Assembly (NCBI GenBank): GCA_963781585.1
Contig: CAWAGQ010000011.1
Location: 128,001-192,000, forward strand
Length of the DNA stretch: 64,000 nucleotides
Reading direction: 5' to 3'
DNA from: an uncultured Gemmatimonadaceae bacterium
Lineage (GTDB): Bacteria > Gemmatimonadota > Gemmatimonadetes > Gemmatimonadales > Gemmatimonadaceae
The notes under the pieces are model-generated. The model did no database searches. It saw nothing but the letters and a program-made list of their open reading frames with translations, and had not been told where the DNA came from. Each line of letters starts with the position of its first letter. The stretch's first letter is position 1. This document shows, in pieces, positions 2,807 through 48,070 of this stretch. Made by a program: the position numbers and the translations under genes.

Positions 2807-5800
2807 TCAGAAGGACACCGTCATCGAGGCGGAGAACCGCCGGGACTGCGGCACCGTCCACGAATCGTTGCGGTTGAATGTCGATTCACCGTGGAAGTTC
2901 ACTTCGGGGTCGGCTCCTCCGTACTTCGTCCAGATCTTCAGGTTATGGCCGGAGAGTGTGAGCGTGGAGCGGGCCACACCGATCCGGCGTGTGACGGAGG
3001 CCGGAAGGTCGTAGCTCACGGACAGGTCGCGCAGCTTGATGAAGTCCGCTTTCTGGATGTGCAGGAACGTCTGCGATGCGAACTGGCGCACCAGCACCTC
3101 GTCGGGGTCGGCCGCCGGGTTCACCGTCGCCCACGACACGCCCGACCGGTCGCGCCGCCAGTCCTTCACGTTGAACTGATAGTGTCCGCCCTTGTAGTCG
3201 AGCAGCCCGTACAGCCGGATCTTGTCGAAGAAAGTGAACGTGTTCGAGAGCGCGATTTCCCGGGTCGGGATCGACGGTCCCATATAGAGGGACGAGTCCT
3301 CGAGAATGGGGCGACCCTGCGCGTTCTTGATGAGCTTCCCGCTGGCGTCGTACTGGACCTTCTGCGCCCAGAACCCGGCCAGTGGATACCCCACCTGGTA
3401 CCGCTCGACGGGAGCGTACGCGCCGAACACGATGGGGGCGCGATTATCCCCGAACGAGAGCAGCTCGTTGTGGTTGGTGGCGAGGCTGAGCGTGGTCGCG
3501 ATGGTGAGGAAGGAGCTTCGGAGCGGAGTGCCGTTGACCAGCAGCTCGATGCCACTGTTCGCGATGGTCCCCAGGTTCTGGAGCTGAGTGCCGGTAAAGC
3601 CGGTGGAGGGAGCCACGTCTACGGGAAGCAGCGCGTCCCTCGTGCGGCTGTTGTAGTAGCTGGCGTCCAGTCCCAGGCGACCTTTGAAGAGACCGGCTTC
3701 GAATCCGACCTCGATCTCCGAGGCGCGCTCGGGTTTCAGGTCGGTGTTGCCCACCGAGTTGTACCGCAGGGCCGAAGCCGTGGAGCTTGGCCCCGTCTCC
3801 ACGGACGTCGTGTAGCTGCGAACGGCGTCGAAGGGGCCGGGTGAGTTGCCTGCCTGACCCCACGCGGCGCGCAGTCGGAGCTGGTCCACGCTCGGGATGT
3901 GGAAGTAGCTCTCGTCCGAGATGACCCACGAGGCCGAAACCTTGGGGTAGAACACCCGGTTCAGCTTGGAGCCGAACGCGGAGTTGTTGTCCATGCGGAG
4001 CGCAGTCGTCACGAACAGCCGGTCGTGCCAACCCAGCTGTTCCTGGGCGTAGAGGCCCAGCGACTTCTGCTCCGAAAAGCTCTCGTTGCCCCAGGTGACG
4101 GCGGCCGAGGCGATGGAGCGGATGCCGGCGGCGCCAAGGTCCTGCCCAAACGCCTGCGTGTTCTGGTTGCTGTTCTTCAAGAACTGCATGCCCACCGAGG
4201 TGTTGGACACCAGGTTGGTGTTGATCTGGCGCGTCGCCTTGCCGGTCCAGTCTACCGTCAGATTCTTGTTGAACGGGCGTCCCTCGGCGATCAGCCCCTT
4301 GGTGTTGTCGACGTCGAAGCTGGCCCGGGCGGTGAACGGGTTGGTGCCCGCCGGTGCCGGAGGGAAGTAGACCTCGGCCTGACCGGCGTCGAGGTCGTAT
4401 CCCACGACGAGCTTGCTGCTCAGCCAGTCCGTGAACTTGTACTCGGTTGTCCCGCCAAGGATGTATCGGTCCGAGCGCGTGATGTTCTCGTACGTGTTGA
4501 ACACCGAGGGCTCGATGGTGAAGTAGTTGAGCCCTGCGGGGAACGGGTACTTGCGCCCCGGGGTCGCGAGGTACGAGCTGATGATCAGCCCGGTGGCGAT
4601 GTTGTCGCTCAGGGGGAGCCGCACCGTGTTGATGCTGTAGCCGACGTCGGTCGAGAATGTGAGCTTCGGCGTGGGACGGAACTGGAAGTTGCCGCGCAGC
4701 GACGTCCGGTTCGAGTAGTTGTTGAAGTAGCTTCCATCCTCTGCGTCCCGACCGCCGGAGACATAGAACGAATGGTTCTCCGCGCCCCCGCGAGCGCTCA
4801 GGTAGTACTTGGTGAGTTGGCCGGTGCGGAGGGCATCCGACTCGTTCATGACCCGGTGCGAGATGATGTCGCCCTCTTTGAGGCCCTGGTAACCGGGATA
4901 GTTCGTCGGGTCCGCGATGCGGGCGGCGGTAGCCACCCCGTAGTTGATGGGTCGGAGGTTGTCCGGCCAGTCATTGCCGCCGAACTCCCCGCTGGCGTCC
5001 CATTGCACCGCGCCGGCGCGGCCTTTCTTGGTGATGATCTGAATTACGCCTGACGCGGCCTCGGCGCCGTACAGCGTGGCCGCCGCCGGGCCCTTGATAA
5101 CCTCGATGGACTCGATGTCGGCCGGGTTGATGGCGTCCAGGGCGGAGGTGTTCTGTCCGAACACGTTGAAGTTGCCCGAGCTGTCGGAGTAGATCCGCAC
5201 GCCGTCGACGTAGATCGTGGGCTTCGTGTTGGCGTACACCGACGACGCGCCGCGGAGACGGAAGTCGGCCCCGGTGCCAGCCTCACCGGAGCCCGGCATG
5301 ATGGTGAGCCCTGGCGTCTTCGCCTGCAGTACCTCGGTGATGTTGGCGGCCGGAGCCTGCTCGAGCACCTGGGGTGCGCTCAACGACGTGACCGCGTTGC
5401 CAATGACCTTCCTTCTGGTATCTCCGGTCGCCCCGGTGACCACGACGGCGTCCAGTGAAATGGCGCTGGGGTTCATTCTCAGCTCGACGCTGGCCCGCGC
5501 GCCGGCCTGCACAGACACCGTAGCACTGGCCGTCTGGTACCCGATGCGAATGGCCCGAACCACGTGGGTGCCCACGGACACGCTCGCGATGGTAAAACGT
5601 CCGTCGGCATCTACGACCACTGCCAGGGACGTTCCCACGATGACGACCTGCGCCGCGGCGACCGGAATGCCCTTCTGCGCGTCGAGGACACGCCCGGTCA
5701 CAGTGCCCGTCTGGGCTGCGACGGGCTGCGCTGCTGCGAGTCCCAGTGCAACAGCAAGGCTGAGCAGCAGACGGCGCCTCATCCGCGGACCTGCTCCATC

Positions 5801-16497: not shown

Positions 16498-16571
16498 GCG
16501 CCCGTAGCTCAATTGGATAGAGCTTCTGACTTCGGATCAGAGGGTTGGGGGTTCGAGTCCCTCCGGGCGCA
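16498..16571 (+). tRNA. tRNA-Arg, anticodon TCG; CCA not encoded
   Basis: Acceptor stem GCGCCCG/CGGGCGC, D-arm AGCTCAATTGGATAGAGC, anticodon arm TCTGA-CTTCGGA-TCAGA, T-loop GTTCGAGTC. Confidence 0.95.
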
Positions 16572-42726: not shown

Positions 42727-44343
42727 GTGCAGCCGATCGCGATGACGGTGGCACGCCGCGCGCGAATCTCATTCGTCGCATTGCTGGCGTGGGTCGTGCC
42801 CGCGCTGGCGGGCGCGCAGAACGTGGTGGGCGACACTGCAACGCATCGCGCTCCGGTCATTCGCGCCGTCGAGATCGCGCGACAGACTGTGTTCGACTCA
42901 CTCGAAGCCGAGTTCTGGCTCTATCATCTCGTCAACTCGCTTCACGTTCGTACCCGCCCCTATGTGATCCAGCGCGAGTTGCTCTTCGTCCCGGGTGAAC
43001 CCTACGATTCGGCGCGCGTCAACGAGTCCGAGCGCAACCTGCGCGCCCTCGGCATCTTCCAGGATGTGTCGATCGACACCGCGATGACCGATTCCGGCGT
43101 CGTGGTACGCGTTCGAACCATCGACGCCTGGACGACCACCGCCGGACTGGGACTGAGCACATCGGGGTCGCAGTACATTCTCGATCTGTCGCTCCAGGAG
43201 CTCAATTTCCTGGGCACGCATACCATTGCCGCGATCGGGTATGTGAACGATCCGGATCGCAGCAGCATCTCCGTCGGCGTCAGCACACCCCGCGTCATCA
43301 ACAACCGGATCGGCGTTGGCGCGTCGTACCTCGACCGGTCCGACGGGCATGCCGGGGCGCTGTCGCTCACCTATCCATTCGTGAGCCTCTCGTCACGCCA
43401 CGGCGGCTCGCTTCGTACGACATTCGTCAACGGCCGGGTGCTGCGGTTCTTTCGGGGCAATCCGGTTCCTTCTCAGGAGCTGCGTCGGCTGTATTCCATG
43501 GTTCGGGGTGACGCGGCCGTGGCGCTGATGGGCAGCCCGCGCGGCTACGTCCGGCTGGGTCTTGCCGCCCAGGTGCGACGCGAGGACTTCGGACCGGACG
43601 ACGGCTCGATCGCGATTCCACGGACCATCACCGCGGCCGCGGGGCCCACGCTCGGCGTCAGGCGGCCGCACTATATCCGGATGCACAACTACCAGACCAT
43701 GGGCCGCGTTGAGGACGTCGATCTCGGCGCCTGGATGCAGAGCGAGATTCTGGCTGCGCCCCGCGCCTGGGGCTATGACCGGGATGGCGTCGGCGCCGCG
43801 GTCACGGCCGGGATCGGGCATCGCATTCCTTCGGGATTCGTCCAGATCGTCGGAGGCGCCAACGCGCTCGTCACCAGCCAGGGAACGGACTCGGCGTCGG
43901 CCGGCGCGTCGGCCGTACTCGTTATGCAGGCCGGTCCGCGGCACCTGCTGGTGGCGCATGCCGGCGCGGGACTCCTCAGGAACCAGTTCCCGGGCGGCGA
44001 GTTCGACTACGGGCTGGGCAACGCCCTGCGCGCGTTTCCCGCGCACGCCTTCACCGGCAACCGTGAATACCAGCTCCACGCCGAGTATCGATTGATCATC
44101 TGGCCGCGCATCCTCGGCCTGGTGGGGGTCGGGGTCGCCGCGTTTGTCGATCACGCCGGTGCCTGGTACGACGGCCAGCCCTCGCGGACGGGGACGGATC
44201 TGGGCGTGGGGCTGCGGCTGGCCTCGCTGCGCGAGCCGGGGAGCGCTTGGCGCTTCGATCTGTCGCGCCGCCCGACAACCGACGTGCTGAGAGCGGCGTG
44301 GGTGATCTCGGTGGGGCGCGGGTTCGTCTTCCCGACGTTCTGA
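42727..44343 (+). CDS. Omp85/BamA-TamA-like outer membrane protein (POTRA + barrel)
   Basis: TRPYVIQRELLF..GE.Y...ESERNLRALGIF, ELNFLG, LRAFP, GVGLRL, terminal Phe. Confidence 0.8.
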   Translation: MQPIAMTVARRARISFVALLAWVVPALAGAQNVVGDTATHRAPVIRAVEIARQTVFDSLEAEFWLYHLVNSLHVRTRPYVIQRELLFVPGEPYDSARVNESERNLRALGIFQDVSIDTAMTDSGVVVRVRTIDAWTTTAGLGLSTSGSQYILDLSLQELNFLGTHTIAAIGYVNDPDRSSISVGVSTPRVINNRIGVGASYLDRSDGHAGALSLTYPFVSLSSRHGGSLRTTFVNGRVLRFFRGNPVPSQELRRLYSMVRGDAAVALMGSPRGYVRLGLAAQVRREDFGPDDGSIAIPRTITAAAGPTLGVRRPHYIRMHNYQTMGRVEDVDLGAWMQSEILAAPRAWGYDRDGVGAAVTAGIGHRIPSGFVQIVGGANALVTSQGTDSASAGASAVLVMQAGPRHLLVAHAGAGLLRNQFPGGEFDYGLGNALRAFPAHAFTGNREYQLHAEYRLIIWPRILGLVGVGVAAFVDHAGAWYDGQPSRTGTDLGVGLRLASLREPGSAWRFDLSRRPTTDVLRAAWVISVGRGFVFPTF

Positions 44344-44408
44344 GTCACGAGTGCTTGGGTCCGGCGGCGAGGTAATGTCTGCGAGTTGTATCAGCCGTCG
44401 CGGCACTC

Positions 44409-44437
44409 TTGACGCCTCGCGACCGGCATCCTATCAT
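44409..44437 (+). promoter_or_regulatory. Sigma70 promoter
   Basis: TTGACG-N17-TATCAT immediately upstream of the riboswitch. Confidence 0.75.
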
Positions 44438-44454
44438 CACCGCACAATCGAACG

Positions 44455-44507
44455 TCCGTGGTGATTTGCCGCCTATTGCCGCCACGTAAAACAATGAGCT
44501 AAAAAGC
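44455..44507 (+). ncRNA. SAM-II (SAM-alpha-type) riboswitch aptamer
   Basis: CGTGG-TGATTTG...TTGC..CCACG-TAAAACAA...GCTAAA matches the SAM-II pattern. P1 is 44457-44461/44482-44486; ATTG/CAAT and the 3' GCTAAA tail provide the pseudoknot elements. Confidence 0.8.
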
Positions 44508-44511
44508 GACG

Positions 44512-44548
44512 CGCCCGGCGGCAGTGTCAGCCCGGGCGTTTTCGTTTT
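44512..44548 (+). terminator. Intrinsic terminator downstream of the SAM-II aptamer
   Basis: CGCCCGG...CCGGGCG stem followed by TTTTCGTTTT. Confidence 0.7.
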
Positions 44549-44570
44549 GGTGCCTTTCACCGGCCAGTCC

Positions 44571-44681
44571 ATGATCGCGTATCGCGCGCAGTCATCGCAG
44601 GTCTGCATGTGTACACCCTGGCGGCCTCCCTCGGGAGAGCGGTCCGGGGTTGCCGTGCATGGCGCACGCGACCCGAGCTAG
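44571..44681 (+). CDS. Putative 36-aa leader peptide with Cys-Met-Cys (MIAYRAQSSQVCMCTPWRPPSGERSGVAVHGARDPS)
   Basis: Short ORF ending 23 nt before a terminator, with alternative pairings present. No obvious Shine-Dalgarno sequence. Confidence 0.5.
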   Translation: MIAYRAQSSQVCMCTPWRPPSGERSGVAVHGARDPS

Positions 44682-44704
44682 AGCGAGAAGTCGCTCCAGC
44701 GCCC

Positions 44705-44740
44705 GGCCCGGCCCTCCTCGAGGGCCGGGCCTCTTTTTTC
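44705..44740 (+). terminator. Attenuator terminator upstream of the ATP-grasp gene
   Basis: GGCCCGGCCCTC-CTC-GAGGGCCGGGCC followed by TCTTTTTT, about 20 nt before the start codon. Confidence 0.88.
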
Positions 44741-44760
44741 TTGCACGCAGGAGAAATGAT

Positions 44761-45803
44761 ATGACTGCCATTCAGACCTGGAGCCGGCCGCTCGCTGTGC
44801 TCCACGAACATCCCGACTGGTTCCGCCCGCTGTTCGCCGAGCTCGATCACCGGGGCCACGAGTATCGCCGGCTCGACGCGGCCTCGCACACCTACGATCC
44901 CGGTGAACGCGACGTGCCGTATTCGATCGTCTTCAATCGCGCCAGTCCGTCGGCGTATCTGCGCGGCCACGGCGCCTCCACCTTCTTCACGCTCCACTGG
45001 CTGCGTCACCTGGAGCGCCACGGCGTTCCGGTGGTCAACGGCAGCGCCGTCTATGCGCTGGAGCTCTCCAAGGCGTCGCAGCTCGATCTCCTCGATCAGC
45101 TCGGGTTGCCGTATCCGCGCGCGGTGATCATCAACGATCCCGCGCACGCCCTCGCGGCCGCCCGCCTGCTGCGCTACCCGATCCTGGTCAAGGCGAATAT
45201 CGGCGGCAGCGGCGCCGGCATCGTGCGCTACGACTCGCCGGCCGCCCTCGCCGACGCGGTGGCGGCGGGGGCGGTGGCCCTGAGCGTGGACGGCACGGCG
45301 CTGGTGCAGGAATGCGCGCCGCTGCGCGGGGGGCACATCACCCGCGTCGAAACGTTAGGCGGCCGCTATCTGTACGCGATCGATGTCTTTCCCGCGGCCG
45401 GCTCGTTCGACCTCTGCCCGGCCGATGCCTGCCAGACCACCAGCGGGGTGGAACTGGTGCGCGGCGCCTGCGCGGCCGACGCGCCCCGCGGCGGCCTCCG
45501 CGTCGAGGCCGCCCACCCGCCGGCCGCCGTCATCGCGCAGGTCGAGCGAATCGCCCGCGCCACGCAGCTCGATGTCGGCGGCATCGAGTATCTGATCGAT
45601 GATCGCGACGGCCAGGTCCGCTTCTATGATATCAACGCCCTCTCCAATTTCGTCGCCGATGCGCCGAACGTGATCGGCTTCGACCCGTTCGTGAACCTCG
45701 TCGACTACCTGGAATGGCGGGCACTCGGCGACCAATGCGACGCGTCATCCGCGGCGTTCGCGCCTCCCCGCCTCTCGCTCTCCACCGCTCACCACGTCAC
45801 GCC

Positions 45804-45807
<4 letters not shown>
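44761..45807 (+). CDS. RimK/GshB-like ATP-grasp ligase with a Cys-rich insert
   Basis: RBS AGGAG; VFNRASPS, SKASQ, YPILVKANIGGSGAGI, LVQE, GGIEYL, DINALSNF, and the insert FDLCPADACQ...GAC. Confidence 0.85.

Positions 45808-48070
<2,263 letters not shown>

Follow-up and report, generated by a model that had tools for sequence, protein, structure and literature searches.

A Gemmatimonadaceae operon leader with a SAM-II riboswitch and a putative Cys/Met leader-peptide attenuator in series

Can a single bacterial leader RNA gate an operon on two sulfur end products, one sensed as a metabolite and the other through tRNA charging? The question is raised by positions 44409–44760 of a 64,000-nucleotide (nt) stretch of DNA, here called the window, from an uncultured Gemmatimonadaceae bacterium (GCA_963781585.1, contig CAWAGQ010000011.1, positions 128,001–192,000 of the forward strand), whose genome, G000, measures 5.7 Mb and has a G+C content of 67%. 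An earlier note on this DNA described a promoter, an S-adenosylmethionine (SAM)-II-like aptamer, a terminator, a 36-codon open reading frame (ORF) with adjacent TGC-ATG-TGT codons and a second terminator, and all of these elements are present where the note had placed them. Our analysis favors a leader in which a SAM-II riboswitch precedes a ribosome-mediated attenuator that senses cysteine and methionine, both acting on an operon for an ATP-grasp ligase-like protein and a flavin monooxygenase. We put the probability of this full two-input mechanism at roughly 0.6. The first unit comprises three features.

44409..44437, + strand: sigma-70-like promoter, TTGACG-17-TATCAT, with 10 of 12 consensus matches
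44448..44524, + strand: full-length SAM-II (SAM_alpha, RF00521) aptamer, 40.1 bits in Rfam against a gathering score of 36
44511..44548, + strand: terminator 1, the putative riboswitch expression platform; a predicted hairpin at about 44511–44539, then the U-tract TTTTCGTTTT to 44548

The promoter is the single promoter-like site in 43800–45300 (shuffled sequence gives a mean of 0.2). It places the predicted transcription start a few bases 5′ of the aptamer, and by eye a promoter stands at the same position ahead of the aptamer in relatives. The Rfam search of the whole window bears out the SAM-II assignment of the earlier note (E 1.4e-05), and in 44300–44850 no family except SAM_alpha comes near its cut-off (E up to 10), the best being sX13 at 22.6 bits against 50. 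The P1 helix CGUGGU/GCCACG aligns to the RF00521 model and is invariant among ten aptamers; the strands UGAUUU and GCUAAAAAG of the candidate pseudoknot, whose pairing that model does not score, are present and conserved. The gene context is that of SAM-II, with a terminator directly 3′ of the aptamer and ahead of a sulfur-type operon. We consider the aptamer very probably a genuine SAM-II.

The 3′ end of the aptamer overlaps the 5′ arm of terminator 1, which folds on its own at −21.2 kcal/mol; a simple consensus scan for terminators missed it and a separate terminator scan picked it up. Relatives carry the same GCCCGGCGGC...GCCGGGC-Tn design directly after the aptamer. In the unconstrained fold, the aptamer's 5′ half (GUCCGUGGUGAUUUGCCGCC) is paired to terminator 1 at its loop and 3′ arm, a candidate antiterminator, and other folds result when the 3′ arm of the terminator or the pseudoknot strands are blocked. 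These modeled folds fit an OFF switch: SAM would lock the aptamer, and terminator 1 would be free to form.

Downstream of terminator 1 lies a second unit, built around a short ORF (sORF).

44571..44681, + strand: leader sORF of 36 codons plus stop, from the ATG at 44571 to a TAG, MIAYRAQSSQVCMCTPWRPPSGERSGVAVHGARDPS; read as an ORF, with a Cys/Met-rich frame conserved in relatives
44604..44612, + strand: putative regulatory codons TGC-ATG-TGT (Cys12-Met13-Cys14), read directly
44601..44663, + strand: long hairpin, "1:2", in the minimum-free-energy fold; 5′ arm of the Cys-Met-Cys codons plus ACCCUGGCGGCCUCCC, 3′ arm GGGAGAGCGGUCCGGGGUUGCCGUGCAUGG
44641..44649, + strand: core of segment 2, GGUCCGGGG; predicted partner of the terminator 2 5′ arm with a ribosome at Cys14
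44705..44742, + strand: terminator 2 from the consensus scan; stem 44705–44731 (12 pairs, 11 of them G-C), then TCTTTTTTCTT
44749..44763, + strand: Shine-Dalgarno sequence AGGAGA (44749–44754) and ATG (44761) of the first structural gene, read directly

The Cys-Met-Cys codons fall within the 5′ arm of the long hairpin, and the pairing of ACCCUGG..CUCCC with GGGAG..CCGGGGU, which the earlier note had proposed as the 1:2 arm of an attenuator, is indeed part of the minimum-free-energy fold. The long hairpin is retained in three of the related tandem leaders (L002, L007, and L008), with some two-sided changes. From the sORF onward (44571–44745) the leader folds at −96.5 kcal/mol, compared with −75.2 ± 4.2 for 200 dinucleotide shuffles (z −5.07). 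Terminator 2, at −25 to −28 kcal/mol, starts 22 nt past the sORF stop and ends 28 nt ahead of the gene, while the Shine-Dalgarno sequence of that gene lies outside the folded leader.

In the mechanism that we propose, one promoter would produce a leader of ~315 nt with two premature-termination switches in series, followed by a two-gene sulfur-scavenging operon. With SAM bound, the pseudoknot would hold the 5′ half of the aptamer, terminator 1 would form and transcription would stop; without SAM, the same 5′ half would pair with terminator 1, at its loop and 3′ arm, and permit read-through. At the second switch, an sORF translated smoothly to its stop codon, or not translated at all, would leave the long hairpin in possession of segment 2, and terminator 2 would form. 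When Cys- or Met-tRNA is poorly charged, the ribosome would stall at Cys12-Met13-Cys14 and cover the 5′ arm of the hairpin, which would free the G-rich segment 2 for pairing with terminator 2 at its C-rich 5′ arm and allow transcription of the operon. Because two complete terminator units stand under one promoter, the operon would be made only if both are read through. We infer AND-gate behavior of the two switches, with full expression at low SAM together with low Cys/Met-tRNA charging, in other words a NOR gate on two sulfur end products.

To place the leader among its relatives, we compared it with loci carrying an orthologous ATP-grasp gene. Related genomes supplied 23 of these (42 of 61 genomes had some match), and the best 80 of 597 confirmed stretches came from one-genome-per-species contigs; after removal of two exact duplicates (L056 = L012, L076 = L018), 101 distinct loci remained, the window's own being L001. 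The named relatives are Gemmatimonadaceae or other Gemmatimonadota genomes assembled from metagenomes. L014, from genome G008, is included in the counts and no claim depends on it. Curated leaders fall into 6 tandem (L001, L002, L007, L008, L009, and L011), 21 with SAM-II only, 38 with an sORF only, and 36 with neither.

Of the 99 distinct loci covered by the search (all but L111 and L112), 27 have a SAM-II aptamer with a terminator ahead of the orthologous gene. Fifteen of these aptamers reach Rfam's gathering score; the other 12 are variants matched only by our own model, R1, which was built on ten Rfam-validated copies and scores them at 67–84 bits. Two loci hold an additional SAM-II close to the operon: L013 has one downstream of the operon (3646–3721, + strand), and L057 has one of 59.4 bits on the opposite strand (2085–2160, − strand), facing a divergent gene.

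Many leaders instead, or in addition, contain a short Cys/Met-rich ORF followed by a G+C-rich hairpin and a T-run. We scored these with a strict rule (an ATG ORF of 12–50 codons at −380 to −20 with a five-codon window holding at least two Cys and at least three Cys plus Met), which is matched by 34 of 100 testable leaders, by 2 of 100 reverse complements and by 56 of 5000 dinucleotide shuffles (1.1%). A looser rule, matched by 41/100 leaders and 16/100 reverse complements, discriminated poorly and was dropped for the strict one. The peptides differ widely while the Cys/Met cluster remains in frame, and many relatives carry runs of CC to CCCC, unlike the window. A hairpin with a T-rich tail could be assigned 3′ of the sORF in 37 of 42 curated loci, mostly 12–64 nt after the stop. 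The Cys/Met-rich upstream ORF, whose conservation the earlier note had named as a check, recurs, together with a terminator, before orthologues in many genera, either alone or behind a SAM-II.

How the sORFs might be translated is suggested by the promoters of the non-tandem loci. In 22 of 37 of these, a promoter-like site ends 6–10 nt 5′ of the sORF ATG, a spacing found at 84 of 13,693 ATGs (0.6%) in the same loci, and a leaderless mRNA is predicted. No promoter lies at leaderless distance in any of the six tandem loci. This contrast accounts for the earlier note's caveat on the missing Shine-Dalgarno sequence and also makes it sharper.

The codons themselves are unusual. In 38 Gemmatimonadota loci, the rare Cys codon TGT accounts for 74 of 141 sORF Cys codons (52%), whereas the adjacent ATP-grasp genes use it for 19 of 120 (16%) and the long ORFs of G000 for 20%; the preference could tune stalling or serve G-U pairing. 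The promoter spacing, the downstream hairpin and this codon preference are traits by which the sORFs were not chosen. Cys makes up 13.5% of sORF residues against a comparison value of 0.7%, and Met 6.8% against 1.9%, figures that are partly circular in that the set was chosen by those residues. We judge it quite probable, and more so than the complete two-input mechanism, that this family of sORFs is a ribosome-mediated sensor of sulfur amino acids.

Beyond the phylum, three Pontibacter loci and one locus from Blastocatellia have Cys-run sORFs ahead of the orthologue. The Pontibacter sORFs (L085, L089, and L094) are conserved, 36–39 codons long and located 315–357 nt upstream of the ATP-grasp gene; they end in CCFC, CCCCCC, or CCCCCCC and start ~6–7 nt after a TATAAAT-like box. 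No clear terminator follows them in these three loci, and a different, non-terminator mechanism probably operates in these Bacteroidota.

Whether a stalled ribosome could release terminator 2 was modeled by blocking 27 nt around the A-site in nascent RNA that lacks the 3′ arm of the terminator. With the ribosome at Cys14, the predicted nascent fold has GGUCCGGGG (44641–44649) paired to the terminator 2 5′ arm. In the window, this arm is paired with a mean probability of 0.36 with no ribosome, 0.46 with a ribosome at Cys12, 0.70 at Cys14, and 0.39 at the stop codon. Over 37 loci, the corresponding means for the terminator 5′ arm are 0.63 with no ribosome, 0.73–0.74 when stalled and 0.54 at the stop; stalling raises arm pairing by more than 0.2 in 8 of the 37, and none shows an equal drop. 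The antiterminator duplex exceeds shuffles by a modest trend (mean z −0.72 over 37 loci, p ≤ 0.05 in 7), and one subgroup has sORFs whose 3′ end visibly mimics the terminator's 3′ arm. When RNAalifold is applied to the six tandem leaders, both the long hairpin and the terminator are retained, with a two-sided change in at least one sequence at 12 of 35 pairs.

Several observations weigh against the two-input mechanism. The window's 2:3 duplex, at −18.1 kcal/mol in a G+C-rich leader, is no better than shuffled sequence (mean −17.8, z −0.11); the 2:3 pairing of the earlier note is predicted to form with a ribosome at Cys14, but its energy does not set it apart. The covariation term of the six-leader alignment is about zero (0.1). 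With a window duplex equal to shuffles, a modest trend in the family and covariation near zero, the modeled antiterminator is a plausible candidate. In the RNAalifold fold of the tandem leaders, moreover, UGCAUGUGU pairs with a GCGCACGCG-like stretch, so that part of the Met enrichment might reflect RNA pairing and not Met sensing. The window's sORF holds only two Cys codons and one Met codon, and its AUG is partly paired in the predicted fold. As the earlier note had cautioned, it has no clear Shine-Dalgarno sequence; nor does it have a promoter of its own at the ATG, and both signals are missing ahead of the sORF in all six tandem loci, window included. Because it is internal (starting ~125 nt inside the transcript, behind the riboswitch) and lacks both signals, its translation is the weakest link exactly at the two-input claim. 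The operon's resemblance to sulfur families stays below curated cut-offs, as detailed further on, and since the loci are related to each other, all locus counts given here overstate the independent support.

Some of the same observations can be read differently. The second element (~44549–44745) might be an untranslated structured RNA, a ligand- or protein-binding leader whose Cys and Met codons are a by-product of a UGCAUGUG:GCGCACG motif. In its favor are the missing Shine-Dalgarno sequence and promoter in the tandem loci, the very stable fold (the z-score of −5.07), the base pairing of the Cys-Met-Cys codons in the consensus fold and, by eye, GCGCACG-like sequence close to the stop codon in many sORFs. 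Yet the Cys/Met cluster is always in frame with an ATG, which has a leaderless start in 22 of the 37 non-tandem loci, and the reverse-complement and shuffle controls fail the sORF test. Codon make-up is kept while peptide length and sequence vary, the Pontibacter leaders have plain poly-Cys runs of different sequence, and no other Rfam family approaches its cut-off here. We regard an untranslated RNA as improbable, though it survives best among the alternatives.

That the tandem sORF is a relic of a once-leaderless attenuator, with SAM-II alone regulating or some other factor relieving terminator 2, seems to us similarly improbable. In its favor, the ATP-grasp tree shows at least 26 changes of leader type, one clade of 19 mixes tandem loci with SAM-only and sORF-only ones, and an initiation signal is not visible in the six tandem loci. 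Against it, the Cys/Met frame is kept in 6 of 6 tandem loci, with differing peptides and with ATP-grasp proteins only 72–91% identical to that of the window, and without translation of the sORF the strong terminator 2 would be constitutively active and the operon silenced.

An unrecognized promoter between terminator 1 and the sORF would make the modules independent and the logic OR instead of AND. The sORF-only relatives are predicted to start transcription at the sORF ATG, which lends this idea its appeal; however, no −10/−35 match lies at the right distance in the six tandem loci, the scan of 43800–45300 yields only the promoter at 44409, and we consider it highly unlikely. Equally slight are the chances of a functional Cys-rich peptide, be it a precursor of a peptide made on the ribosome and modified after translation (RiPP) or scaffold for the ATP-grasp enzyme or a metal-binding micro-protein: a small Cys/His-rich ORF does adjoin an ATP-grasp gene, some ATP-grasp enzymes mature ribosomal peptides, and there is a weak match to the ATP-grasp ribosomal peptide maturase TIGR04187 (20 bits against a cut-off of 350), but we rejected the RiPP reading because such an sORF is missing from 57 of 101 orthologous loci (including the 21 with SAM-II only), no core or leader motif is conserved beyond Cys/Met richness, a strong terminator separates the sORF from the enzyme genes, and what look like C-terminal motifs (P-x-G and G-rich) fall on hairpin arms.

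On a FastTree phylogeny of the ATP-grasp protein, the at least 26 changes of leader type compare with a minimum possible of 3 and a shuffled mean of 49.3, and all six tandem loci belong to the one supported clade of 19, intermixed with the single-module types. The many changes and the mixed clade indicate that the two modules are separable and often exchanged. Some leaders bear other insertions. A palindromic insert resembling a miniature inverted-repeat transposable element (GGGGTCAGAGTC ... GACTCTGACCCC, ~90–110 nt) separates the SAM-II terminator from the gene in L017 and L067 and is also found in the L074 leader, showing how leaders are remodeled. In L009, several direct copies of a ~24-nt unit (GGGGACGTGTCCC..GTGTACCA) occur upstream of the promoter, ~350–520 nt before the gene.

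Elsewhere in G000 we found no counterpart. The genome contains 476 ORFs that pass the strict rule on either strand, and the only one with a strong terminator (a hairpin of −14 kcal/mol or below plus a T-run, 20–120 nt after the ORF) is the present locus; under these criteria, no Cys-leader regulon was found in G000. A scan anchored on 319 terminators produced candidates only inside genes or adjoining transposases and was set aside, as was an intergenic scan with the same outcome that also missed the known locus. The only other SAM-II of G000 (contig C3:326151–326225, L031 1501–1575, 44.3 bits) has a hairpin and then a metH-like methionine synthase gene behind it, and a Cys sORF is absent there. 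In 36 relatives (58 matches listed across 37 genomes), we examined 29 SAM-II loci: a Cys/Met sORF accompanies only L131, which is the ATP-grasp locus L011, the 28 others have no tandem, and most of these 28 precede metH-like genes. Within G000 and the relatives examined, the pairing is specific to this operon.

The operon consists of two genes.

44761..45807, + strand: ATP-grasp ligase-like protein of 348 residues, from an uncharacterized RimK/LysX-like family, by profile matches
45804..46850, + strand: luciferase-like flavin monooxygenase, nearest to SfnG and SsuD (Bac_luciferase, 5.5e-62)

The ATP-grasp protein matches LysX_preATP_grasp and CPSase_L_D2, both weakly, and TIGR00768 at 55 bits, under the cut-off; the family has at least 7999 metagenome relatives, whose names, if any, are hypothetical or RimK-type ligase-like. 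The start of the monooxygenase gene overlaps the ATP-grasp stop (ATGA, 45804), and its product scores 248 bits against SfnG TIGR04021 (cut-off 383) and 187 bits against SsuD. By eye, an ORF directly upstream in L019–L021 resembles SsuE, the flavin mononucleotide reductase of the sulfonate pathway. On the strength of the SfnG/SsuD-like monooxygenase and this SsuE-like neighbor, the operon is best read, from family resemblance below curated cut-offs, as one for organosulfur scavenging. Relatives have a variable third gene, encoding an amidase, a flavin oxidoreductase of the Old Yellow Enzyme type or a MacB-like permease; directly behind the window's monooxygenase gene lies instead an IS110-family transposase (46151–48070, + strand; DEDD_Tnp_IS110 and Transposase_20, residues 332–596). 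Given the variable third gene of the relatives, the operon may have lost downstream genes to this transposase, which could have cut them off.

The gene upstream of the leader (42727–44343, + strand) encodes a POTRA-domain outer-membrane protein of Omp85/ShlB-like type. A similar POTRA gene precedes the locus in L041 and, judged by ORF size and position, probably in L050, so that synteny reaches upstream. Farther away, the window carries a tRNA gene (16498–16571, + strand; 69.4 bits against RF00005).

If the two-input mechanism holds, this leader is a natural RNA gate that joins a metabolite riboswitch for SAM with a ribosome-based sensor of Cys/Met-tRNA charging. To our knowledge, experiments have so far shown cysteine-sensing sORFs only in mycobacteria and only as translational attenuators; the present family would extend them to terminator-based attenuation and to soil phyla that are abundant and mostly uncultured. 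The same ATP-grasp/monooxygenase operon is the point on which SAM-II, Cys/Met sORFs and poly-Cys sORFs converge, and this convergence points to a testable sulfur-starvation role for a family with thousands of unnamed members in soil metagenomes. For synthetic biology, the modular layout offers ready-made parts for sulfur-responsive control. More speculatively, and in our view somewhat doubtfully, a "sulfur ribulon" may operate in Gemmatimonadota, and in some Acidobacteriota and Bacteroidota at least, with interchangeable, stackable RNA modules, SAM-II plus terminator and a usually leaderless Cys/Met-codon sORF plus terminator, that are often gained, lost and combined. The convergence of these modules on one abundant, uncharacterized ATP-grasp/SfnG-like pair would mark it as a new way of obtaining Cys/Met from an organosulfur compound. 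In the stacked form, translation of the sORF would begin at an internal AUG that has no Shine-Dalgarno sequence and is not at a 5′ end, implying unconventional ribosome loading after read-through of the first terminator.

Leader-peptide transcription attenuators are classically represented by trpL, hisL, pheL, thrL and leuL of Proteobacteria. The window's second unit shares with them a short ORF containing the sensed codons, a hairpin that starts there, an intrinsic terminator just before the operon, and a resemblance of segments 1 and 3 and of segments 2 and 4. It differs in that Cys and Met would be sensed, that the stop codon lies after segment 2 and 22 nt before the terminator, and that the ORF has no Shine-Dalgarno sequence and is leaderless in relatives. 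Two inputs also meet in the Salmonella mgtA leader, where a Mg2+ riboswitch is combined with the proline-codon ORF mgtL; that ORF lies inside the expression platform of the riboswitch, whereas here two complete units stand in series, each with its own terminator.

The first unit resembles known SAM-II riboswitches with an intrinsic terminator: one is predicted for metZ of Sinorhizobium meliloti (PMC9373788), and others for the first unit of SAM-II/SAM-V tandems (PMC9481103). They have in common with the window an aptamer above the family cut-off, a terminator directly after it, and sulfur or methionine genes. The known host and target are an alpha-proteobacterium and a methionine synthesis gene, in contrast to a Gemmatimonadaceae genome and an ATP-grasp/monooxygenase pair, and in the SAM-II/SAM-V tandems the downstream partner is a second riboswitch instead of a leader-peptide attenuator. 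Tandem riboswitches for different ligands likewise place two sensors in one leader and make expression depend on both inputs; in the review the words "peptide," "attenuat," and "uORF" occur 0 times (PMC9481103).

Cysteine-codon sORFs are described from mycobacteria, where leaderless polycysteine sORFs (the "Cys ribulon") attenuate translation (Canestrari et al. 2020, bioRxiv 10.1101/834739). The Ms5788A leader described there acts by freeing a Shine-Dalgarno site, and the authors contrast it with terminator-based models; a 2026 paper still cites polycysteine sORFs as translational (PMC13236596). The likenesses are Cys-codon sORFs before sulfur or cysteine operons, a leaderless start in relatives of this locus, and the idea of a ribosome-stalling cysteine sensor; the differences are a strong intrinsic terminator, Cys interleaved with Met, and another phylum. 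The mycobacterial class features are a leaderless start, at least two consecutive Cys codons, and sequestration of a Shine-Dalgarno sequence, and the window's element shows none of the three. By analogy, the window's element is of the classical terminator attenuator type in its presumed working, not of the mycobacterial type. For Actinobacteria, Cys-codon leader peptides have also been predicted ahead of cys/cbs operons (Seliverstov et al. 2005, PMC1262725); they have no terminator hairpins and Rho-dependent termination is considered by the authors, whereas the intrinsic terminators here are clear.

The earlier note did not recognize the combination as described, and our literature search agrees: in open-access papers and preprints, supplements aside, we found no published SAM riboswitch stacked with a Cys/Met leader peptide, and in open-access papers and preprints no published terminator-type Cys/Met leaders outside Actinobacteria, Gemmatimonadota included. 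Set beside these systems, the comparison suggests that each part of the leader is of a known kind, a SAM-II riboswitch and a leader-peptide attenuator, and that their combination ahead of one operon is apparently new.

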